A stretch of 64,000 nt of DNA from Gynuella sunshinyii YC6258 (GCF_000940805.1 NZ_CP007142.1:408593-472592); one strand, 5' to 3'. Shown: positions 22,536 to 33,376, counted from the stretch's first letter. The notes: generated from the sequence alone by a model not told the origin. Made by a program: numbers and translations.

Positions 22536-25310
22536 ATGTCCAACACTCTCTATTGTCATTACCCCGATGGCCGGAAGGAAACCATCCGCCACCCTGCCAA
22601 GCCCCTTAATCAGGGCGCTGACGGCGCTATCTTTGCCAGTACTGACCGACGTTATGCGCTCAAGATCTATCACCACCCGGATAAAGATCCCCGACGTGAA
22701 CACAAACTGTGGCAGATGATCGAACACACGCCACCGGCACAGCAAGGTGTTACTTTTGCCTGGCCGCTGGCCATACTCAAAACACATCGGGGTAAATTTG
22801 TCGGCTATCTGATGCCGTTGCTGAACTTCAAACATGAGGTTCAGCTGGAACAGTTGCTTTCGGCCCGGGCTCGTCAGCAGTCCAAACTGCCGGAAAGCTA
22901 CCTGTTTCGACTGAATGCCGCCATTGAACTGGTTCGCTGTGTCGAGGCGCTCCATCGCAGTGGTCATGCCATCATCGATTTCAAACCGGTGAATGTCATG
23001 GTCAACCGTCGGACTGCCGCCATTTCAATCGTCGACTGTGATGGCTTCTTCATTCGTGGTTCACATGATCAGTTTCCCGGTCACCAGTACACCGCCGGGT
23101 ATATTGCACCGGAAGCCCATAACAACAAACTGCCGCCCGATCAACTGGATCAGGCCCAGGACCTGTTTGCTCTGGCCGTTATTGTTTTCCAACTGCTCAA
23201 TAATGGAATTCACCCGTTCCAGGGCGTTCCCAAGCCCGGAACCAAACTGCCCACGGATAACCAGGCCCGCATCAGTGCAGCGCTATATCCCTACGGTGAA
23301 CAACCGCACCCCCGGATAGGTCCATCCCCCTGGAGTCTTCATCGCCACTTTCCTGTCAACCTGCGGGGGGCATTGGAATCATCGCTGATTGGCCCCAAAA
23401 GACATTCGGCGCAGCAATGGCTGCAACTGCTGGAGACCTTGCGCGAACACATCAGTCAGTGTCAAAAAACAGCGGATCACTACTACTGGGGAGAAGAATG
23501 CCCCCATTGCCGCCAAAGCGCCGGACAAACACAACAGTTGGCAGCAACGGCCAAAGCAGCCGCCCAACGAAAACCCCGCAAGCCGACCATCAAAACCCGG
23601 CCGACCAGACACACCGCGGCTCAACCGACCCCTCCGCCAGCACCAACCGCCACGATATCTACCGGTTTTGCCTGGTTCATGATAGTCGCCGTCATACTGG
23701 TGGGTATCATTTTCTTTAACAACGATCACTCTGATGACAGCCGCTACCCAAGTCCGGATGACACCGCCGATGAGGTATTTAAAGACTCCTATTCCGAAAT
23801 GCTGATTCCCGCTTCGGATCTTAACTTTCTCATCCTTGATCCCGCTAAAACGACCACCGAGACGGTCGCTTATACGGACGATGTTGTACGCATGACCTAT
23901 GACGACGGACAACCGGACTCAATATTTTACCAGTTGCCGGAATTCAGCAGCGCCAGTGCAATACCCTACCTCAAGCGCAAGGCAATCAGCCTGAATACCA
24001 CCACCACAATGATCAGCGGCGCTTATGATATTGGTATCCGTGACTTCAACGATCACAACCGGATGCTTGGACAGAATAACAACCCGAAAAACAACATTCT
24101 CATGCTATCGGACTGGCAATATGACGAAGCCACCGCAACGTCTTACACGTATTTGTGTATCCGCCATAACGATGGCAGCGGTATTGGAGGGGCTTTGCCG
24201 ATATGCCAGCACGTGTTACAGAGCAAAACCAACGGATCAGCACGATTTGAATTTACAGAACAGCCGGACACAGATACCTCCACCGCCGCGCAGGCTGGTG
24301 GCTGGCGTTATGACCTGAGCAACAATGGTCGTTACCTGGCCATGGCCAGCAATCGAACGCTGATCGTCTACAAAACCAACAACCCCAAACAGCCACTGGT
24401 TCAGCAATTGTTGCCGGCAGATCAGCTGCAACAATCCATCAACCGCATCATCATCGATGACAGCGGTGAACAAATCTATCTGGCCCTGACAGCACCCGCC
24501 AAACCGAATGAAGCTTTTTCCGGTACCGTCCTGGAACTGCAAAAAACCGGACAGGAGTACCAGATCAGCACCGACTTCTCGACCCTGACAGACCCCAACA
24601 CCCTGTCAGGCATTGACGTTGCCATCAATGCCGATGGCACCATCATGGCCATTGGCGAATACACGGATTCGTATCTGAACACCACCGACTATACCTCTCT
24701 GGGAAGTCCTGTCGATGTCCTGGAAGGCTTTGCCAGAATCAGCCTGTGGCAACGAACCTCTGAAGGCTGGCAGCAGATCTCCACGGTCCACGAACTGAAA
24801 TCCGCGAACGTTACCATCAACGGGGAAGCGTTTTACACCGACAAACCACCCAGAGAACTGATCACCGTTCCGCAGACTATCAGTGCCTACTATTTCAGAG
24901 CATCCTGGTTTGGGGGAGGACAAGGAAGCATTCAATCCCATGCCGCCTTCAATCGTCATTTTCAGCTGAGCCGTGATGGCAAAATACTGATGTCAGGACT
25001 GACTCTAAATGGGCAGAACAACCGCCAGAACAGCACCATGACCGTCAGCACCCATCTCTACGGGATCACCGGATCTGACGTCGCGCTCGCCGCCATTGCG
25101 AAACTTGCAGTCTCCCGGCAGTACGATCAAAACTACCTGCTGGTCGATGCCCGCATGTCGAAAGACGCTGCCACGATCATTTTCAATACCACCACCAATG
25201 TCAGATCTGTCTCCCGGCAAATTCAACAAACCACGCGGTTTGATTTATTTGACTTAAATTCCCTGAGCCAACCGGAATCTGTTACCACTGACGGAGGATC
25301 AACGTATTAA
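22536..25310 (+). CDS. Ser/Thr protein kinase with a zinc-ribbon-like motif, a proline-rich linker, one TM helix and a roughly 540-aa extracytoplasmic C-terminal domain
   Basis: Kinase motifs: RYALKIY (VAIK-like), IIDFKPVNVMV (catalytic loop) and GYIAPEA (APE). Then CPHCRQ, a proline-rich PTPPPAPTA linker, the TM helix FAWFMIVAVILVGIIFF, and a long Ser/Thr/Asn-rich domain. Confidence 0.8.
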   Translation: MSNTLYCHYPDGRKETIRHPAKPLNQGADGAIFASTDRRYALKIYHHPDKDPRREHKLWQMIEHTPPAQQGVTFAWPLAILKTHRGKFVGYLMPLLNFKHEVQLEQLLSARARQQSKLPESYLFRLNAAIELVRCVEALHRSGHAIIDFKPVNVMVNRRTAAISIVDCDGFFIRGSHDQFPGHQYTAGYIAPEAHNNKLPPDQLDQAQDLFALAVIVFQLLNNGIHPFQGVPKPGTKLPTDNQARISAALYPYGEQPHPRIGPSPWSLHRHFPVNLRGALESSLIGPKRHSAQQWLQLLETLREHISQCQKTADHYYWGEECPHCRQSAGQTQQLAATAKAAAQRKPRKPTIKTRPTRHTAAQPTPPPAPTATISTGFAWFMIVAVILVGIIFFNNDHSDDSRYPSPDDTADEVFKDSYSEMLIPASDLNFLILDPAKTTTETVAYTDDVVRMTYDDGQPDSIFYQLPEFSSASAIPYLKRKAISLNTTTTMISGAYDIGIRDFNDHNRMLGQNNNPKNNILMLSDWQYDEATATSYTYLCIRHNDGSGIGGALPICQHVLQSKTNGSARFEFTEQPDTDTSTAAQAGGWRYDLSNNGRYLAMASNRTLIVYKTNNPKQPLVQQLLPADQLQQSINRIIIDDSGEQIYLALTAPAKPNEAFSGTVLELQKTGQEYQISTDFSTLTDPNTLSGIDVAINADGTIMAIGEYTDSYLNTTDYTSLGSPVDVLEGFARISLWQRTSEGWQQISTVHELKSANVTINGEAFYTDKPPRELITVPQTISAYYFRASWFGGGQGSIQSHAAFNRHFQLSRDGKILMSGLTLNGQNNRQNSTMTVSTHLYGITGSDVALAAIAKLAVSRQYDQNYLLVDARMSKDAATIIFNTTTNVRSVSRQIQQTTRFDLFDLNSLSQPESVTTDGGSTY

Positions 25311-25452: not shown

Positions 25453-26451
25453 CTATAACCGTAGTATATGGTCCTGAAAACTCATTTCCCTGCCGGTCAC
25501 ACGGGCGATAATCTGACGATTGGTCTCGCCATGATCCGACAAACCATCGCAACGAAACTCACCACCACCGGCCACCAGCATCGGCAGCATGATCTGATCC
25601 GCCAGATACTCATCCAGCACGGCATCACTTTGCAGATAACGGTTCACCTGCTTCAGCAGATTGCCGGCAACTTTTTCGGCACTGAGACGTGGTCGCCCTA
25701 ATTCGGTCAGGCAAATACGCGTCTTCTCAAAATGCAGATCAACAGCCAACAGGTTACCCGGCGAACTGCTTTTGGGTTGCCGGATCCGGGTTTCAGTGAC
25801 CGCCATCGGAGCACTGCGACAAAATACCTGTAGCTCACGTTCAGCGACCTGATTGCTCAGGCCGACTTCATAGGCACTGAGGCGACAGTTCAGCAGTTCA
25901 CCGCGCTGCAACCGGCTGATCGGTGACAGCACTGACGGTTTGATCGTTGCCTGCCAGCAACCTCCACCAGCCGGCATGAATCCCCAACGTTGAACATCCA
26001 GCTCAATCTGTGCGCCCATTTCCCGCAATAACGGCAAAAATGAACGCTTCAGATAGGTCAGGGGCGGCGCCATCGGGTTATGAGTGCCACCACGAAACTG
26101 CACCGTTGACGCGCCTTTGGCCTGCAGTAACGGCAGCGCGATGGTCTGGAATACCAGCGTGGTGCTGCCGGCACTGCCGACATCAAAATGGTAATCGCCG
26201 GATGTCACCGCGCCCGGCACGAAACGCAGTCGCGTTGACCCCAGTTCAGCCCCCTCAACCCAGGCACCACTGATAGTCTGAGCCGCCAGCACACAGGTCA
26301 GGTGCTGACGCATCAATCCCGGCTTGGGCCGGCCGCCACGAATGTGATGAATCTCAATCCCTTTGCCGGTCAGCATCGCCAGGGTCAGCGCCGAACGCAA
26401 AATCTGGCCGCCACCTTCACCCTGGCGACCATCCAGTTCAATCATGTCCAC
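25453..26451 (-). CDS. rtcA: RNA 3'-terminal phosphate cyclase
   Basis: LDGRQGEGGGQILRSALTLAML...GGRPKPGLMRQHL is closely similar to E. coli RtcA. Confidence 0.9.
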   Translation of the reverse strand: MDMIELDGRQGEGGGQILRSALTLAMLTGKGIEIHHIRGGRPKPGLMRQHLTCVLAAQTISGAWVEGAELGSTRLRFVPGAVTSGDYHFDVGSAGSTTLVFQTIALPLLQAKGASTVQFRGGTHNPMAPPLTYLKRSFLPLLREMGAQIELDVQRWGFMPAGGGCWQATIKPSVLSPISRLQRGELLNCRLSAYEVGLSNQVAERELQVFCRSAPMAVTETRIRQPKSSSPGNLLAVDLHFEKTRICLTELGRPRLSAEKVAGNLLKQVNRYLQSDAVLDEYLADQIMLPMLVAGGGEFRCDGLSDHGETNRQIIARVTGREMSFQDHILRL

Positions 26452-26458
26452 TACACAG

Positions 26459-27676
26459 TTATCCTTTTACACATACCACTTGTCTCAGGGTATGAACCAC
26501 TTCCACCAGGTCAGACTGAGCCGCCATAACCGCATCAATATTTTTATAAGCGCTGGGGGTCTCATCCACCACCGCCGCATCTTTTCGGCATTCCACATGG
26601 GCCGTCGCCAATGCATGCTCTTCAACACTCACCACTTTCTTGGCCTGGGTACGAGACATCACCCGTCCGGCTCCATGGCTACAACTGCAGAAGCTTTCCG
26701 CATTACCCTTACCCCGGACGATAAATGAGCGCGCACCCATGCTACCGGGAATAATTCCCAATTGACCTTCACGGGCGCTCACAGCACCTTTACGGGTCAA
26801 CCAGACATTTTTGTCGTAGTGGTGCTCTTTCTGCACGTAGTTATGGTGACAATTGACTGCCTCGCGCTCGACGATAACCGGTTTGTTCAGGGTAACCGCC
26901 AGCGCTTTCAAAGCCCGTCCCATCATCACCTGACGATTAATACGGGCAAAATCCTGAGCCCAGTCGACCGCTTCAACATAGTCGTTGAAATAGTCTGTTC
27001 CTTCGACCAGATACGACAAATCCCGGTCAGGCAACTGAATGAAGAAACGTTCCATTTCCTGTTTAGCCAGGCGGATAAAGTGTTCACCGATCCGGTTACC
27101 CACACCGCGGGAGCCGGAATGCAGCATGATCCAGACATCATCCTGTTCATCCAGACACACTTCAATAAAGTGATTGCCGGTACCCAACGTTCCCAGGTGT
27201 TTTACATTATTAGTGTTTTTTAATACGGGATGCTTATCGCACAACACCGTAAAACGATCAGCCAGCTGCTGTTGCCAGAATTGACCGACATCCTCCGGAA
27301 TATCATGCCAGGCACCCGGATCACGTTTTCGGGCTTTTCCTCCACCATGGGGAATGGCACGCTCCAGATTGCTACGCAGTTCTTTCAATGAGTCCGGCAA
27401 CTGATCGGCCCGGACATCGGTTTTGACGGCCATCATGCCACAGCCGATATCCACACCCACCGCTGCGGGAATGATGGCACCGGTGGTTGGAATCACCGAG
27501 CCGATAGTCGCTCCCTTACCAAAATGCACATCCGGCATTGCGGCCACCCATTTATGGATGAACGGTAGCGAGGCGAGGTTTTTCAATTGTTGCCGGGCTC
27601 CGTCCTCAAAAGGTACGCCGACGGTCCAGCTTTTTACCGGAACCCCTTTTTCCACGTTGATCACTTCAATGGCCAT
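26459..27676 (-). CDS. rtcB: RtcB RNA ligase (3'-phosphate/5'-OH RNA-splicing ligase)
   Basis: Length 405 aa. Metal-binding and GMP-histidine region motifs MLHSGSRGVGN and NCHHNY are present. Lies immediately upstream of rtcA. Confidence 0.9.
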   Translation of the reverse strand: MAIEVINVEKGVPVKSWTVGVPFEDGARQQLKNLASLPFIHKWVAAMPDVHFGKGATIGSVIPTTGAIIPAAVGVDIGCGMMAVKTDVRADQLPDSLKELRSNLERAIPHGGGKARKRDPGAWHDIPEDVGQFWQQQLADRFTVLCDKHPVLKNTNNVKHLGTLGTGNHFIEVCLDEQDDVWIMLHSGSRGVGNRIGEHFIRLAKQEMERFFIQLPDRDLSYLVEGTDYFNDYVEAVDWAQDFARINRQVMMGRALKALAVTLNKPVIVEREAVNCHHNYVQKEHHYDKNVWLTRKGAVSAREGQLGIIPGSMGARSFIVRGKGNAESFCSCSHGAGRVMSRTQAKKVVSVEEHALATAHVECRKDAAVVDETPSAYKNIDAVMAAQSDLVEVVHTLRQVVCVKG

Positions 27677-28015
27677 GATTTACTCCTTTTATTAAACCTG
27701 AAACTGTCATTCCGATACGGGTGACAGATTATCTAAACCGACACATTCAACGATGTAACAGGGTATTAACAAGAACAATGCCAAGAACCAAAATAAATAT
27801 AACTATTTGATAAATAAGACATTTTTATTTTTAACTCAATCACGATCAGCCAAAATTTATCGATATCGATCAACTATGATCATTTTCGAGTGGCAACAAG
27901 CCCAATGACATCACGCCCAAAGCCGTGATTACCTGCCCAAAGACTTTGTTTCGCCACAACCACCCCCACATTAAGGGACGACCCAGGCGTATCCTCTATC
28001 CAAGGAAACAACGTA

Positions 28016-28471
28016 ATGCATGAAACCCGCACAAATATTCAGCCCTTCTCAGACAGTCAGTGGCGCACTCTCAGCCTGAGCCCGGTGATTATATTTTTAC
28101 TGGTCGCCGCCGCCGACGGACATATCGATAACCGGGAAAAGCAGCAGTTTGTGGAATTACTGAAAGAGACAGAGAAGCGCCGTTCAGACAGATTGAAAAC
28201 ACTGCTTCAGGACGTGGCCCGGCAACTGACCGATTTATTGATGGTCGTGGCCAGCGAAACATTGGATATGATTGACGTGATAACGGAAACCGTCGATCTG
28301 GTGGAACAGCATCTTGAGCCCGAAGAAGCCCTGCTCTTCAAGCAGGACCTGCTCGACTTTGCCACTGAAATTGCCCGCAGCTCAGGCGGCCTGACCAGCG
28401 GCACAATTGATCGTCACGAGCAGCAGACGCTGGACCAAATCAGTCACTATCTGCGGCTCAATCTGTCCTGA
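28016..28471 (+). CDS. TerB-like (tellurite-resistance TerB / DjlA N-terminal-like) domain protein
   Basis: Helical protein of 151 aa with the VAAADGHIDNREKQQFVELL motif that resembles the TerB family. Assignment made by eye only. Confidence 0.4.
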   Translation: MHETRTNIQPFSDSQWRTLSLSPVIIFLLVAAADGHIDNREKQQFVELLKETEKRRSDRLKTLLQDVARQLTDLLMVVASETLDMIDVITETVDLVEQHLEPEEALLFKQDLLDFATEIARSSGGLTSGTIDRHEQQTLDQISHYLRLNLS

Positions 28472-28497
28472 CGATCAGCCATGGAGCGCGACGATGA

Positions 28498-29139
28498 TCA
28501 GTCGCGCAATCCCCATTCGGTTTCGACATCCTCCAGATCGCCCACATACGACAAGTCCACGCATTCCAGACTGAACATGTAGCGCACGTCTTCGATCAAC
28601 TCGCGGGCATCCAGATCCAACAAATGCCCCATCACCATGCCATTGAGCTCATAGTAGCGGGGATACGGTTTACGCATGTACTGGCGAAACATCTCCAGCA
28701 CTTCGCTTCTATGAGAAGGAAATGCCATGGCTATTTCCGCCAGCGAGTTCATCGAAATCGCATAAGCAAACTGATCCTCACCCTCCCGTTGCAGATACTC
28801 AGACAAAGGATTGATGGCTGCCGGTCCGATCAATGCCATTACCTTGTCCAGTTCAGTGATGGCAAAATCATCGCCACTGAAGCGGTCAAAGTTGTTGATC
28901 AGACTGTCTATCGCAGTCTCGGCCCGAAGTTGTCCCAGGGTCCGCCAGGCATGTACCGGTGCCCAGGTGGCAGGATCTTTGGGCTCAAGAGTATCGAAAT
29001 GTTCATCGCATACGACTGCGATCAGATCGGCAATATCAGACTCATCAAACCCATACTGCTCGGGGTATTGGGGCCATGGTGTTGAAATATGAGCTTCTCC
29101 CAGCTCGATCAGAGCCTGGATTTTTGGATTAGAGTGCAT
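28498..29139 (-). CDS. Conserved hypothetical acidic helical protein (possibly DUF1186-like)
   Basis: Clean ORF of 213 aa. No motif I can assign confidently. Confidence 0.45.
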   Translation of the reverse strand: MHSNPKIQALIELGEAHISTPWPQYPEQYGFDESDIADLIAVVCDEHFDTLEPKDPATWAPVHAWRTLGQLRAETAIDSLINNFDRFSGDDFAITELDKVMALIGPAAINPLSEYLQREGEDQFAYAISMNSLAEIAMAFPSHRSEVLEMFRQYMRKPYPRYYELNGMVMGHLLDLDARELIEDVRYMFSLECVDLSYVGDLEDVETEWGLRD

Positions 29140-29219
29140 AGTTAAGGTGTTACCTGAAATAAACCAATGGGACGAACAACAGTATGTAGGGCAATATGTA
29201 ACACGTCACAGAAATGGTT

Positions 29220-30806
29220 TCACTGCACCCGTTCAAACTTTAGATCAAACTTGGCCAGATACTGTCGCAATCGATGCGAGTCATTGGCAGAACTTTTCTT
29301 TAATCGCGAACGATTGAACAGTTTACGACCCGCCTGAGAAATATTCTGACTGTCCCGACACACCGCCACCACATGACGGAGTTGCTGCTGGTCGAACAGA
29401 TCCATATCAGCCAGTTGTTCCGGCTCCAGGATTTCTTCCAGTGCCGGTAACGAGTCATTCACCTCTGCCGGTTTCCACCAGGTCAGCAAGCGCTCACACT
29501 CCTGTTGAACCAGAGCTTCATTGATACGTCCGCCATCCGAGAGGATACTCATACGCTGAATACAGGCATTGAGATCACGAAAATTACCTGACCACAAAGC
29601 CTCAGGACTGGTGGCAAAATCGAGAAATCGCTGCCGCGCGGTCTTGTTGAAACTGACTTTGTAACCCATCTGGCTTTCCGCCTGCTGCAACTCATAATCA
29701 AGATTGGGTTCAATATCTTCACGTCGATGCCGCAAACCGGGCAATTCGTAACTCCAGAGATTGATTCGCGCCAGCAGATCCTCCCGAAAACGGCCTTCCG
29801 CCACCTGCTGTTGAAGATCCCGATTGGTGCCGGCAATCAGCTGAAAATCGCTGCTGACGGGACCATCCGCACCCACCGGATAAAACGTCTTTTCTTCAAT
29901 GGCATGCAGCAACATGGCCTGTTCATCCAATCCCAGTTCACCAATTTCATCCAGAAACAACAAACCCTGATCAGCTTTGTTCAACAAACCTTTGCGGGCA
30001 TTCTGAGCGCCGGTGAACGCTCCTTTCTTATGACCAAACAATGCCGACATGGCACTGTCACCGCGCAAAGTGGCACAGTTCACCGCCACCAGCTCCCCCT
30101 GGATCGAGCCACGCATTTTTTTGAGCTCATAAATCCGGCTGGCCAGCTGTGATTTGCCCGCACCGGTCGGCCCGGTAATCAATATCGGCGCCACCGAACG
30201 GATTGCTACCTGCTCAATCTGCTGAATCATGGCATTGAACTGGCGATTGCGGGTGGCAATGCCAGATTTCAGAAACTCAGTGCCTTCCAGTTGCCGACGC
30301 TTGAAACGGGAACTGATGGCATCGTATTTGGAGAGATCCAGATCGATGAGATGGCACTGACCTGACACTCCATTATCGCCACGCCCAGGCGAGGTTTGCA
30401 GCAACACGGCCGGAACATAGTTGGCTTCGCACAACAGAAACCAGCAGATCTGCGCCACATGGGTACCGGTGGTGATGTGCAGCAGGTAGCGCTCCTGATC
30501 CGGCTTGAACGGATAATGCTCCACGAAGTCCAGCAGGGTGCTATAGACCTGCTCAAAATCCCATGGATTCTCAAACCGCAGCTCATGCAGCTGCACTTCG
30601 GTGTCGGGCGAGACCGTCTGCACGTCCGCGCCGACATTATTGGCCAGCCGATGGTCACGCGCATCGTGAATCAGCTCCAGACGATCCACCAGCAGATCCT
30701 CCTGCATGAAGATACCGACCGTCGGCCGCCATTTATTCCAGCGCTTGACCCCTTTACCGCGGGCATCCAGTACGGTGCCCAGCAAACCAATCACAACCGT
30801 TTTCAT
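29220..30806 (-). CDS. rtcR: RtcR, sigma54-dependent transcriptional activator with an N-terminal CARF-like sensor domain
   Basis: N-terminus MKTVVIGLLGTVLDARGKGVKRWNKWRPT parallels E. coli RtcR. AAA+ sigma54-interaction domain (GPTGAGKS, GAFTGA) and a C-terminal HTH. Start placed at the Met aligned to the E. coli RtcR start. Confidence 0.85.
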   Translation of the reverse strand: MKTVVIGLLGTVLDARGKGVKRWNKWRPTVGIFMQEDLLVDRLELIHDARDHRLANNVGADVQTVSPDTEVQLHELRFENPWDFEQVYSTLLDFVEHYPFKPDQERYLLHITTGTHVAQICWFLLCEANYVPAVLLQTSPGRGDNGVSGQCHLIDLDLSKYDAISSRFKRRQLEGTEFLKSGIATRNRQFNAMIQQIEQVAIRSVAPILITGPTGAGKSQLASRIYELKKMRGSIQGELVAVNCATLRGDSAMSALFGHKKGAFTGAQNARKGLLNKADQGLLFLDEIGELGLDEQAMLLHAIEEKTFYPVGADGPVSSDFQLIAGTNRDLQQQVAEGRFREDLLARINLWSYELPGLRHRREDIEPNLDYELQQAESQMGYKVSFNKTARQRFLDFATSPEALWSGNFRDLNACIQRMSILSDGGRINEALVQQECERLLTWWKPAEVNDSLPALEEILEPEQLADMDLFDQQQLRHVVAVCRDSQNISQAGRKLFNRSRLKKSSANDSHRLRQYLAKFDLKFERVQ

Positions 30807-30951
30807 ATGATCTATTTCGATAAATGACGATAAATTTCGATCAGTATTCCTAAAGACCGGGTCGGGGTCAATGCTGTACATTTATGCAAGAAATATAAAA
30901 AATATTTTAAAAACAATGAGTTATAAATTTTTTTAATACATCAGAACAAGC

Positions 30952-30967
30952 TGGCACAGAGCTTGGA
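30952..30967 (+). promoter_or_regulatory. Candidate sigma54 (-24/-12) promoter TGGCAC-agagc-TTGGA, reading toward the tRNA-like RNA and SPFH/NTase genes
   Basis: Perfect -24 TGGCAC with correct spacing. The -12 element is TTGG rather than the consensus TTGC. Divergent from rtcR, matching the position where RtcR-activated promoters lie in enterobacteria. Confidence 0.35.
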
Positions 30968-31076
30968 ATAACAATATTGAATGTGATCACTGGCAGCGGC
31001 GCGGGTTCTGTACACCCGCCTGGCATCCCTCTCCATGAGACCGGATGTACCGACAGTATCGGACAGTACATTCACA

Positions 31077-31152
31077 CGTTTGATAGCTCATACGGTAGAG
31101 CAGTTGACTCATAATCAATGGGTAACGGGTTCGAATCCCGTTCAAACATCCA
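31077..31152 (+). ncRNA. tRNA-like RNA with a CAT (Met-type) anticodon. It has a 76-nt canonical cloverleaf with an encoded CCA, a C1·A72 mismatch and an AU-rich acceptor stem.
   Basis: Manual fold: acceptor 31077-83/31142-48 (6 of 7 pairs); D-stem GCTC/GAGC; anticodon stem GTTGA/TCAAT with loop CTCATAA; T-stem ACGGG/CCCGT with T-loop TTCGAAT. The anticodon and T arm closely resemble elongator tRNA-Met. Confidence 0.55.
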
Positions 31153-31418
31153 TGGTAAAGCCCTTCCAGGCTCAGGGTTCAAATCCCTCTTTAAATATAA
31201 ACGGGCGCAAGCCCAAAGCGGTGTGCCGCGTTTATCAGACCCGTTGTCGATAAACCCGGGCATACCCGGACCCGGGAGCTGAAATGCCAGGGGCGCTGGC
31301 TGACGCCGGTGGGGGCCAGGGATGGTCGTAGATTCAGGTGTAATCCCCACCGGCCTCAGACAGTCAACCGGCATTCCCTCCCGGCATCTGATCAATATGG
31401 ATCAAAAAAGGAGTCGTT

Positions 31419-32582
31419 ATGAAATTGTGGACCTCCATCAGCGTGGCTGATGATGAAAGAGTTTTATTGTACCGGGACCGTCAGCTGGTCCGGGTACTGC
31501 ACAGCGGTCGCTATCGCATGTTTGATCCCGGCCGGCGCTACAGCACAGAAACCCTGTCGCTGCGCGAAGCCGGCGTCAAACATGGCAACCTTGAAGTACT
31601 GCTGACCCTGGAGATTTTCCGCGCCGAGGTGGACGTTGAAACCATCGGCCAGGAAGAAGTCGGCATCGTGCGTCTGGATGGACAGGTGAAAGCGGTATTG
31701 GAACCGGGATCGCGCTTTGTCCGCTGGCGCAGCAGTGAGAATCTGACGCTGGAATGCATCGACATTTCCAATAACTACCGCATCGCTCCGGCGTTGCTGG
31801 CGCAATTGGAACGCTCGGGTGTGAACGGCATCGGCAGCCATAAGGCCTGGATGCAGTTGACCGTGCCGGATCAGACACTGGGTCAGCTGTTTGTGGATGG
31901 TCGTCTGGCCGAGACCCTGCCGAGCGGCCGCTATGGTTTCTGGTTGTACAACCGGGAACTCAACACCCAGGTCAGTGACCTGAAGTGGCAATCGGTGGAA
32001 ATCAGCGGTCAGGAAATTCTGACCAGGGACCGGGTCAGCCTGCGGTTGAACCTGAACGCGGTTTACCGCTTCAGCGATGTGGTGAAGTTGCTGTCTCAGG
32101 TGAAAAGCCCTGGTGATTATATCTACCGGCGTTTGCAGCTGGCACTGCGGGAAACGGTCGGTACCCGCACTCTGGATGAGTTGCTGGCGGATAAAAACGC
32201 CATCGCCAAAACCATCACCAAATCGGTCAGCGAGCACTTGCAGGAGATGGGATTCGAACTCGAACAGATTGGTATAAAGGACATCATTCTGCCCGGTGAT
32301 ATGAAAGATATTCTGAATCAGGTGGTGCAGGCTCAGAAAACCGCCGAGGCCAACCTGATCCGCCGGCGGGAAGAGACTGCCGCAACCCGTTCGCTGCAAA
32401 ACACCGCCAGAATGATCGAGGGTAACCCGGTGCTGTTACGCCTGAAGGAACTGGAGGCACTGGAAAAAGTGGCGGATCGGATCGGTCATCTGACCGTATA
32501 CGGAGGGCTCGAAGGGGTCATGAATGGACTGGTATCTCTGACCGGGGCGGTGAAATCCTCCAACGGTCAAACAACCTCATAA
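31419..32582 (+). CDS. SPFH/band-7 (stomatin/HflK-like) domain protein with a roughly 200-aa N-terminal extension and no TM anchor
   Basis: Band-7 core DRVSLRLNLNAVYRFSD...ITKSVSEHLQEMGFELEQIGIKDIILPGDMKDILNQVVQAQKTAEANLIRRREETAATRS followed by a coiled-coil tail. No hydrophobic helix is present. Confidence 0.75.
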   Translation: MKLWTSISVADDERVLLYRDRQLVRVLHSGRYRMFDPGRRYSTETLSLREAGVKHGNLEVLLTLEIFRAEVDVETIGQEEVGIVRLDGQVKAVLEPGSRFVRWRSSENLTLECIDISNNYRIAPALLAQLERSGVNGIGSHKAWMQLTVPDQTLGQLFVDGRLAETLPSGRYGFWLYNRELNTQVSDLKWQSVEISGQEILTRDRVSLRLNLNAVYRFSDVVKLLSQVKSPGDYIYRRLQLALRETVGTRTLDELLADKNAIAKTITKSVSEHLQEMGFELEQIGIKDIILPGDMKDILNQVVQAQKTAEANLIRRREETAATRSLQNTARMIEGNPVLLRLKELEALEKVADRIGHLTVYGGLEGVMNGLVSLTGAVKSSNGQTTS

Positions 32583-32595
32583 CGGGAGACAGACA

Positions 32596-33363
32596 ATGGA
32601 ACAGAGAATCCTTGCAACGTTGGAGCGGATCGAATGGGAATACGGCGTGGATATCCTCTACGCCTGCGAATCCGGCAGTCGCGCCTGGGGCTTTGTCTCA
32701 CCGAACAGCGACTACGATGTCCGCTTCATCTATGTGCATCCACTGGATCACTATTTATCGGTGGGCAGGCAGCGGGATGTGATTGAAGAACCGATTATCG
32801 ATGATCTCGACATCAACGGCTGGGATCTGCGCAAGGCCCTCGGGCTGATGCGCGGCAGTAATCCCAGTCTGCTGGAGTGGCTGCATTCGCCGGTGGTGTA
32901 CCACAGTCGTGAGTGGTTTGAATACGAGCTGCGGGAACTGGCATTGCAAAGCCTGGATCGCCGGGCGTTGTTTCACCACTATCGCTCAATGGCCGGCAAT
33001 GACTGGCGAAAAGTACGCAAAGCCGACCGGGAAGTTCCCCTGAAGCGCTACTTTTACATGCTGCGCACCGCGCTGTGCGCGCTTTGGGTGATGGACCCTG
33101 ACAAACCGGCGATGCCACCGGTGGCATTCGCAGAACTACTGGCGCAAACAGACATGGATGCGGTCGTTCGGGCGACGATCGGGGAGCTGCAAACACTCAA
33201 GGCCAGTCTGGCCGAGAAATGCTCGATCCCCCGAGTCGTGGTGCTGGACGACTTTCTCGCCGATGCGTTTGCCCGTATGGATGCGGCCAGTCCGGAGAAA
33301 AGAGCGCCGATGCCACTGGCACCATTCGATCAACTGCTGATCAACACCGTAAGGGCGGCCTGA
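32596..33363 (+). CDS. Pol-beta-superfamily nucleotidyltransferase (the RNA-repair-associated NTase family)
   Basis: ESGSRAWGFVSPNSDYDVRFIY matches the hG[GS]...[DE]h[DE]h NTase signature. Length 255 aa. Lies 13 nt downstream of the SPFH gene. Confidence 0.65.
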   Translation: MEQRILATLERIEWEYGVDILYACESGSRAWGFVSPNSDYDVRFIYVHPLDHYLSVGRQRDVIEEPIIDDLDINGWDLRKALGLMRGSNPSLLEWLHSPVVYHSREWFEYELRELALQSLDRRALFHHYRSMAGNDWRKVRKADREVPLKRYFYMLRTALCALWVMDPDKPAMPPVAFAELLAQTDMDAVVRATIGELQTLKASLAEKCSIPRVVVLDDFLADAFARMDAASPEKRAPMPLAPFDQLLINTVRAA

Positions 33364-33376
33364 CCGCCCTTTTTTT
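33353..33376 (+). terminator. Rho-independent terminator GGGCGG-cctga-CCGCCC-TTTTTTT, with the stop codon in the loop
   Basis: 6-bp GC stem followed by a 7-T tract immediately at the end of the NTase gene. Confidence 0.8.

Follow-up and report, generated by a model that had tools for sequence, protein, structure and literature searches.

A stretch of 64,000 nt of the Gynuella sunshinyii YC6258 genome (NZ_CP007142.1:408593-472592, hereafter the window) carries at positions 25453-33376 a locus in which genes coding for the RNA ligase RtcB, the RNA cyclase RtcA and the sigma54 activator RtcR are accompanied by a tRNA-like RNA, a soluble SPFH/Band-7 protein and the nucleotidyltransferase RlaP. 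We are confident that this locus belongs to the Band-7/b7a-tRNA/RlaP type of RNA-repair module. Burroughs and Aravind (NAR 2016) reportedly predicted such a module, together with a scaffold hypothesis. Systems of this kind have thus been on record as a prediction since that year, and the window holds a variant in operon architecture. Taken as a whole, the locus is probably an RtcR-controlled RNA-repair regulon of this type, arranged in two transcription units and building a scaffold ribonucleoprotein (RNP).

A tRNA-like domain within a larger structured RNA

The tRNA-like element was the sole Rfam match in the window and also its sole tRNA-shaped gene according to ARAGORN. It precedes the start of the Band-7 gene by 266 nt on the same strand. 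A preliminary description of the locus made from its sequence had put a tRNA-like RNA ahead of the SPFH gene, and every part that it named was found at its coordinates. The cloverleaf has a CAU 'anticodon', a C1xA72 mismatch, U73 and an encoded CCA. Two sets of loci were compared with the window, namely the related loci L081-L086 and L088, and 80 more distant loci with Band-7 proteins 40-47% identical. Of the 80 distant loci, 63 have a tRNA-shaped gene according to ARAGORN, placed 190-640 nt upstream of Band-7 and in the same orientation; these 63 span Gamma- and Betaproteobacteria and gave 34 different anticodon calls, some loops being uninterpretable.

Alignment of 65 elements of the family revealed that the D-arm UAGCUCA..GGUAGAGC and the T-loop GGUUCRANUCC are practically invariant, the D-stem pairs being present in 65/65, 65/65, 64/65 and 64/65 elements. 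Compensatory changes were found in 16 of 20 pairs, with covariation in the acceptor stem, the anticodon stem and the T stem alike; both the sequence and the length of the anticodon loop vary, and a 3' CCA occurs only in a minority. The anticodon loop is replaced by UUCG in L039, L043 and L053 and by a 6-nt loop in L082 and L088. The element of the window holds all the invariant positions of the family. Its five closest genomes have identical acceptor stems and D-arms and carry CAU, CAU, a 6-nt loop, GAG and UUU as 'anticodon', and the encoded CCA is not conserved among them. The alignment makes the element a member of one RNA family located upstream of Band-7 genes. A decoding tRNA is ruled out by the change of 'anticodon' between genomes whose acceptor and D arms are the same, since a true tRNA does not switch identity in this manner. 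A genuine tRNA-Met was considered and rejected on the anticodon change and the CCA loss in relatives, the C1xA72 mismatch and U73.

Conservation among the five closest genomes extends all the way from the promoter to the Band-7 start codon, with a mean column identity of 69%. These genomes were aligned and folded with Alifold, and pair counts were compared with shifted and shuffled controls. The fold of 30978-31386 comprised 121 pairs, and 91.7% of the cells were paired. Changes on both sides were counted in 40 of these pairs, against 5-9 when the 3' partners were slid by 1-3 columns; column shuffles attained the observed values in 0 of 500 cases. By this covariation, the tRNA-like element is one part of a conserved structured RNA that has several domains and measures about 410 nt. 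The 'tRNA-like RNA' of the preliminary description is real as an element, but the term understates an RNA of this size built around 76 nt.

Upstream of the cloverleaf lies a 5' domain whose hairpin at 30997-31022 shows compensatory changes (CGGGU/ACCCG versus CUGAU/AUCAG). The 10-nt box GGATGTACCG of this domain, or a variant of it with one mismatch, was found in only 15 of the 80 distant loci. UACCG in the box could pair with CGGUA of the D-loop, but no consistent or convincing partner was found. Distant loci noted for the box are L036, L047, L056, L058, L067 and L068. A few, from Steroidobacteraceae, Burkholderiales and Chromatiales, carry it as G(C/T)GTGTACCG and at the same distance from the T-loop as in the window, which is about 85 nt upstream; in others it is placed elsewhere, and in Acidovorax GGAAGTACCG follows the tRNA-like modules instead.

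On its other side the cloverleaf is joined by a second T-arm module. Two T-loop motifs 43-83 nt apart were found upstream of Band-7 in 64 of the 80 distant loci, arranged as a full cloverleaf plus a T-arm module, in the reverse order, or as two full cloverleaves (Pseudomonas), and the module GGTAAAGSC...GGGTTCRA is present also in L003, L011, L013, L025, L088 and L089. A central hairpin and a nested stem follow, the inner stem of the latter showing compensatory changes in 5 of 7 pairs. The RNA closes with a long branched 3' hairpin in which 19 of 34 pairs are compensatory and 90-92% of cells are paired, and which ends about 30 nt short of the Band-7 start codon. The 250-450 nt that lie between the tRNA-like modules and Band-7 in Pseudomonas also form a long covarying hairpin (20/53 pairs compensatory), and one is found likewise at this place in Competibacter. 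Rfam gave nothing beyond chance matches below threshold for the 5' domain, for the second T-arm module and for the 3' hairpin, none of which has a family there. As these alignments depict it, the anatomy of the RNA is far more elaborate than the published descriptions found of the tRNA-like gene.

In Hahella two hypothetical proteins of 76 and 107 aa are annotated inside the structured-RNA region (L084, 7393-7623(-); L085, 5446-5769(+)). Because the compensatory base changes indicate RNA, these gene calls are probably spurious.

Genes of the locus and their layout among relatives

The presence of rtcB and rtcA was confirmed by Pfam matches (E=6e-133 over the full length and E=4e-73, respectively), and the two genes are adjacent at 25453-27676(-). 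RtcA scored 398 bits with the NCBIfam equivalog NF003246 (cutoff 352). The NCBIfam models for RtcB scored far under their cutoffs, the best complete one being PRK09588 (187 bits versus 407), and the top score came from the C-terminal part of an intein-containing RtcB model, yet the protein of 405 aa has no intein. The RtcB of the window may represent a clade without an NCBIfam model of its own.

RtcR consists of an N-terminal CARF-type RtcR domain and a sigma54-interaction AAA+ domain (Pfam), and scored 808 bits with the NCBIfam equivalog RNA_repair_RtcR (cutoff 650). The longest open reading frame for rtcR is 29220-30881(-), 553 aa. Since the RtcR domain begins at residue 27 of this frame, homologues are annotated at 528-538 aa and the equivalog alignment covers residues 1-528 from the ATG at 30806, this ATG, located 75 nt inside the frame, is most likely the true start. 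The 75-nt extension would overlap a GAT-repeat array, described below, and a sigma70-like promoter at 30871-30843(-).

The Band-7 gene, preceded by the ribosome-binding site AAGGAG at 31408-31413, codes for a protein that was correctly foreseen as free of a transmembrane anchor. The maximum 19-residue Kyte-Doolittle value is 1.06, and the AF2 model has no N-terminal helix, showing three N-terminal beta modules, then the SPFH alpha/beta domain and a long helix. Beta-repeat domains N-terminal to an SPFH-like shoulder, as in MVP, were not found in the protein.

The pol-beta nucleotidyltransferase encoded next to it falls in the predicted family, RlaP ('RNA ligase-associated Pol-beta'), and not in an unrelated one. 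Its profile search aligned positions 1-248 of the 249 of PF10127 (269 bits, cutoff 23), and the Pol-beta catalytic motif hG[GS]...DxD takes the form GS...DYD at residues 27-41 (G27-S28, D39-Y-D41). Identity is 41-49% to the rtc-operon RlaP of other genera and 44-49% to those of Pseudomonas loci; no solved structure matched the RlaP of the window by sequence. According to PHROGs, RlaP-like nucleotidyltransferases occur in phages. In December 2025 RlaP of P. fluorescens and P. aeruginosa was reported to add one or two nucleoside monophosphates to RNA 3'-OH ends, with a preference for the 5' half of nicked tRNA; a crystal structure was reported, and the enzyme was proposed to restore nucleotides taken by 'smart' ribotoxins such as RloC (PMC12776372). 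The assertion that the module had never been characterised biochemically is consequently outdated for RlaP. For the Band-7/tRNA-like RNA pair, no mechanistic study was found in the literature searched.

The enterobacterial layout, with rtcR divergent from rtcBA, is not present. In agreement with the preliminary description, the gene map together with Pfam and NCBIfam assignments places rtcR on the same strand as rtcBA and 1.5 kb upstream, divergent from the RNA-Band7-RlaP cassette. The Band-7 protein of the window is 93% identical to that of a Gynuella sp. and 68-75% identical to those of Hahella and one further relative. The same order, that is rtcA, rtcB, variable small genes and rtcR on one strand followed by RNA, Band7 and RlaP on the other, is common to six related loci: L081 (Gynuella sp.), L082, L083, L084 and L085 (Hahella) and L088 (Marinobacter zhejiangensis). 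Pokkaliibacter (L086) has this order without rtcA. None of the 80 distant loci shows it; their commonest RtcR-linked order is rtcR divergent from RNA, Band7, rtcB, (rlaP) and rtcA, and another is rtcR divergent from rtcB, rtcA, RNA and Band7. Genes linked to Band-7 in these 80 loci are those for RtcB (52), RtcR (38), RtcA (31) and RlaP (18). The layout that had been called 'rearranged' is thus real but shared with related genomes, and this comparison of gene orders indicates a lineage-wide architecture rather than a one-off. More than 7,900 relatives of the Band-7 protein were found at E <= 1e-10 among 8,000 candidates scored.

Promoters, candidate RtcR operators and neighbouring genes

A sigma54-type promoter had been proposed upstream of the tRNA-like RNA. 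The -24 element TGGCA at 30952 of the candidate TGGCACAGAGCTTGG is invariant in 9 genomes in which its flanks are not conserved; the -12 element is non-canonical (TTGG, TTGA or ATGA and not TTGC), reading TTGG/TTGA/ATGA/GTGA/CTGG across the same genomes. About 12 nt separate the -12 element from the beginning of the conserved RNA structure. A second candidate, TGGCATTGTTCTTGT, was found ahead of rtcB, where the motif TGGCA(T/C)-N5-(C/A)TTG is invariant in 5 related genomes and the flanks diverge; in Hahella this motif precedes the small gene ahead of rtcB. The window contains 10 one-mismatch matches to the sigma54 consensus against 6.5 expected, so the pattern by itself is not significant, and the case for both promoters is therefore made by conservation.

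The best inverted repeat of the region pairs 27855-27872 with 30808-30825 (18 nt, 89% complementary). Because the two promoters face opposite ways, it amounts to an element in the same orientation upstream of each. Both copies lie in arrays of GAT(C) repeats with exact 10-bp phasing. The GAT/ATC columns are invariant in the rtcBA-side alignment, and the Band7-side array is also conserved among relatives. These arrays are candidate RtcR operators, and both units would be sigma54- and RtcR-dependent. A plus-strand search detected no terminator between 30966 and 31419, that is from the promoter to Band-7, and a strong intrinsic terminator stands after rlaP. The predicted co-transcription of Band7 and rlaP, away from rtcB, points to a tie of RlaP with the RNA-Band-7 pair. 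Coordinates of all features are given in Table 1.

Table 1. Features of the G. sunshinyii RNA-repair locus; positions are counted from the first nucleotide of the window.
Feature	Position	Strand	Evidence or description
rtcA, RNA 3'-terminal phosphate cyclase, 332 aa	25453-26451	-	Pfam RTC E=4e-73; NCBIfam NF003246
rtcB, 3'-phosphate RNA ligase, 405 aa	26459-27676	-	Pfam RtcB full length, E=6e-133
Sigma54-type promoter candidate of rtcBA, TGGCATTGTTCTTGT	27769-27783	-	-24 TGGCA, -12 TTGT; conservation
GAT(C) repeat array, candidate RtcR binding site of rtcBA	27844-27883	-	GAT at 27881, 27871, 27861
TerB-like gene, 151 aa	28016-28471	+	Pfam TerB E=3e-7
DUF1186-like gene, 213 aa, downstream of rtcR	28498-29139	-	Pfam DUF1186 E=1e-4, just above cutoff
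rtcR, sigma54 activator, 528 aa	29220-30806	-	Pfam RtcR PF06956 E=1e-82 and Sigma54_activat PF00158 E=5e-50
GAT(C) repeat array, candidate RtcR binding site of the Band7 unit	30808-30842	+	GAT at 30809, 30819, 30829, 30839
Sigma54-type promoter candidate of the RNA-Band7-RlaP unit, TGGCACAGAGCTTGG	30952-30966	+	TGGCAC-N5-TTGG
5' domain of the RNA	30978-31074	+	Closing helix 30978-30984/31068-31074 around two hairpins
Box GGATGTACCG, 10 nt, in the 5' domain	31043-31052	+	GG.TGTACCG invariant in 9 genomes
tRNA-like domain (b7a-tRNA type)	31077-31152	+	ARAGORN tRNA-Met(CAT); Rfam tRNA 62.2 bits
Second T-arm module without D-arm	31153-31192	+	TGGTAAAGCC-loop-GGCT-AGGGTTCAAATCCCT; canonical T-loop GGGTTCAAATCCC
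Central hairpin GGGC-GCAA-GCCC	31203-31214	+	Tetraloop GCAA/UUCG/UCCG over invariant stem
Nested stem 31219-31225/31262-31268	31219-31268	+	Inner stem 31230-31236/31249-31255
Long branched 3' hairpin	31270-31386	+	34 stem pairs and two tip hairpins
Soluble SPFH/Band-7 ('slipin') protein, 387 aa	31419-32582	+	Pfam Band_7 E=2e-27
RlaP nucleotidyltransferase, 255 aa	32596-33363	+	Pfam RlaP PF10127, E=6e-80
Intrinsic terminator of the RNA-Band7-RlaP unit, right after the rlaP stop	33351-33371	+	8-bp G+C-rich stem, then TTTTTTT

The TerB-like and DUF1186-like genes between rtcR and rtcB are Gynuella-specific among the compared loci. The TerB-like gene is present in L081, other small genes stand at its place in Hahella, L082 and Marinobacter, and the DUF1186-like gene is missing at the equivalent position in Hahella and Marinobacter; neither is probably a core part. 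Hahella and L082 carry a small zf_Tbcl zinc-finger gene ahead of rtcB, overlapping the rtcB start by about 10 nt, an arrangement that suggests an extra lineage-specific partner of RtcB. PADLOC gave no defence-system match for Band-7, RlaP, the TerB-like and DUF1186-like proteins or RtcB. Just upstream of rtcA, 22536-25310(+) codes for a 924-aa protein. It begins with a protein-kinase-like domain (Pfam Pkinase E=2.5e-8), continues with a proline-rich linker and a single hydrophobic segment, and ends in a long region without a family match.

An array of 5-25 ordinary-looking tRNA genes immediately precedes the b7a tRNA-like RNA and its Band-7 gene in 17 of the 80 distant loci (L001, L010, L024, L027, L028, L038, L044, L050, L054, L060, L061, L067, L068, L070, L072, L073 and L075), the largest being those of L061 (25 genes) and L001 (19 genes). 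Sixteen of these 17 loci have no RtcR gene within 7 kb and nine have RtcB; the window carries no such array. The distribution suggests that tRNA-cleaving toxins are countered by arrays of spare tRNAs, by tRNA repair, or by both together. A tRNA array of Anabaena is co-regulated with rtcB (PMC8421152).

Proposed mechanism, competing explanations and comparison with known systems

In Salmonella, tRNA fragments that end in a 2',3'-cyclic phosphate activate RtcR (PMC7790460). After this example, RNA damage in Gynuella would yield tRNA fragments with cyclic phosphate ends that activate RtcR, and RtcR on the GAT-repeat arrays would turn on both sigma54-type promoters. The first unit, rtcB-rtcA, would provide RNA sealing and end cyclisation, and the second would give a single transcript whose first ~410 nt are the structured RNA, followed by the Band-7 and RlaP coding regions. 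The RNA, cut free at the tRNA-like domain or left in cis, would join a soluble oligomer in which the Band-7 protein forms a ring or cage. In this RNP scaffold, broken tRNAs and tRNA-handling enzymes would be gathered by the invariant tRNA elbow (D-loop/T-loop), RlaP would refill the one or two nucleotides lost at the 3'-OH of the broken tRNA, and RtcA and RtcB would complete the repair. The model is essentially the scaffold hypothesis of 2016 made more specific by the RNA anatomy and the Band7-rlaP coupling, and the scaffold mechanism itself is proposed tentatively, the chances lying somewhat against it. More doubtful is a further step, in which the RNA of about 410 nt (30978-31386) would be a stand-alone non-coding RNA that builds a soluble cage-like RNP with the anchor-less SPFH protein.

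The tRNA-like domain could instead act as a decoy or sentinel, baiting tRNA-cleaving toxins and either soaking them up or amplifying induction through its own cleavage products, whose 2',3'-cyclic phosphate ends would act on the CARF domain of RtcR, with the Band-7 protein and RlaP as accessories. The response of RtcR to tRNA fragments with such ends (PMC7790460) fits this proposal, operonic tRNAs of Anabaena have been proposed as 'sponges' for toxin RNases (PMC8421152), and no part of the family varies more than the anticodon loop (34 different ARAGORN calls in 63 loci), as expected of an arms race. Many members, however, carry tetraloops or loops of 5-6 nt that are poor mimics of a nuclease target, the conserved part is the elbow and not the anticodon arm, and a decoy leaves unexplained some 330 nt of extra conserved structure and the tight linkage to Band-7. 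Because the anticodon loops vary, tetraloops included, while the elbow is invariant, we favour the scaffold and regard the decoy as unlikely. A coincidental neighbourhood, with a genuine tRNA-Met beside an unrelated stomatin-like membrane-scaffold gene and a stray nucleotidyltransferase, is scarcely credible: ARAGORN and Rfam do see a good tRNA with a CAU anticodon and encoded CCA, but the element stands upstream of Band-7 in at least 63 of 80 loci with any 'anticodon', in close relatives the anticodon differs and CCA is lost with the acceptor and D arms retained, C1xA72 and U73 are present, the protein has no membrane anchor and the nucleotidyltransferase is RlaP.

The RNA might also serve as a cis-acting leader, a 5' untranslated region steering the processing, stability or translation of the Band7-rlaP mRNA without any trans-acting partner RNA; RNase P/Z would punctuate the transcript at the tRNA-like element, and the long hairpin would stabilise its 5' end. 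Punctuation of polycistronic transcripts by tRNA-like elements is a known principle; the RNA is always located directly upstream of Band-7, on the same strand and without an intervening terminator, and the proximity of the long hairpin to the start codon (about 30 nt) agrees with such a role. Neither a stabiliser nor a punctuation site, however, needs an invariant D-loop/T-loop elbow or a second T-arm module, and the 100-nt 5' domain with its invariant 10-nt box is likewise superfluous. Moreover, the tRNA-like RNA PA4581.1 ('tRNA-Arg4') of P. aeruginosa is detectable by quantitative reverse-transcription PCR as a separate RNA, roughly half as abundant as canonical tRNAs (PMC13637947). A purely cis-acting leader is accordingly given a low probability, although leader and partner-RNA roles are not mutually exclusive.

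Several observations weigh against the regulon and scaffold as we describe them. The -12 elements of both promoters lack the canonical GC (TTGG or TTGT, not TTGC). In 27 of the 80 distant loci the Band-7 gene has no detectable Rtc gene within 7 kb; the RNA-Band-7 pair may therefore have a function that needs no RtcB. RtcB cannot directly ligate the 3'-OH end on which RlaP stops, a problem raised by the authors of the RlaP study themselves (PMC12776372). The level of PA4581.1 was unchanged while the PA4582-85 proteins were strongly induced (PMC13637947), which argues against simple co-regulation, at least in P. aeruginosa. Finally, deletion of the P. aeruginosa Band-7 gene (PaFlo8) gave no phenotype in the general assays reported, which cover growth, pyocyanin and secreted-protease production, swimming motility, biofilm and oxidative stress (PMC13086221); none of the assays seen in that paper involves a ribotoxin or RNA damage.

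The rtc locus of P. aeruginosa comprises rtcR (PA4581), 'tRNA-Arg4' (PA4581.1), PA4582 (PaFlo8), rtcB, PA4584 (RlaP) and rtcA. The window has the same six parts, with the tRNA-like RNA directly upstream of Band-7 and RtcR as regulator, and in both Pseudomonas and the window a long hairpin lies between the tRNA-like RNA and Band-7. RlaP of the window, which matches its Pfam family over the full length, shares this family, the GS...DxD motif and a location in an RtcR-linked locus with the RlaP of P. fluorescens and P. aeruginosa (PMC12776372). Pseudomonas and most other loci, in contrast, have a single operon divergent from rtcR, with rlaP located between rtcB and rtcA in Pseudomonas, whereas in the window rtcBA is separate behind rtcR, and rlaP follows the Band-7 gene and the RNA, away from rtcB. 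The RNAs differ as well: two complete tandem tRNA-like modules in Pseudomonas, and one cloverleaf, a D-arm-less T-arm module and an extra 5' domain in the window.

The rsr-yrlBA-rtcBA operon of Salmonella, which is induced by tRNA damage (PMC7790460), likewise joins RtcBA under RtcR/sigma54 control, a control that is predicted for the window, with an RNA-binding scaffold candidate and a non-coding RNA bearing a tRNA-like domain. The partners in Salmonella are Ro60/TROVE and Y RNA, whereas in the window the partner would be the SPFH protein: no TROVE match was found with Pfam among the locus proteins, and Rfam matched no Y RNA family in the window or in 30900-31450. The tRNA-like module of Salmonella YrlA is nested in the Ro-binding stem, whereas the domains of the window RNA are placed in series. 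The parallel with Ro60 and Y RNA made in the preliminary description is the one drawn by the 2016 authors, according to bioRxiv 10.1101/312249. In stomatin, HflK/C, QmcA and the eukaryotic vault (MVP, vault RNA and TEP1), an SPFH domain and a long helix build rings and cages of 16 to 39 subunits, and the protein of the window has both elements. The vault also unites a soluble SPFH-containing protein with a small structured RNA; in the window the tie is genetic.

RtcB/RtcA repair systems are widespread, and their natural substrates and cofactors are still debated. The Band-7 protein and its tRNA-like RNA, a pair found in thousands of genomes including that of P. aeruginosa, are the least understood predicted cofactor of this repair. 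In the window the RNA-Band7-RlaP unit is set apart from rtcBA, from promoter to terminator and apparently under the same regulator, which provides a natural dissection of the system and clean genetic targets. The RNA model, with its coordinates and covariation support, makes the mechanism of the Band-7/RNA pair directly testable, and the candidate RtcR operator repeats common to the two promoters are the third addition made by this locus. If the particle model is true, the cage-like RNP would be a counterpart, in design and not in descent, of Ro60-Y RNA particles or vaults, in which tRNA-like elbow modules hold broken tRNAs while RlaP and RtcB/RtcA rebuild them, and the Band7-rlaP coupling would make RlaP a component or a client of the particle. 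Such a particle, with an SPFH cage as its framework, would add a new type to the ribonucleoproteins of bacteria.

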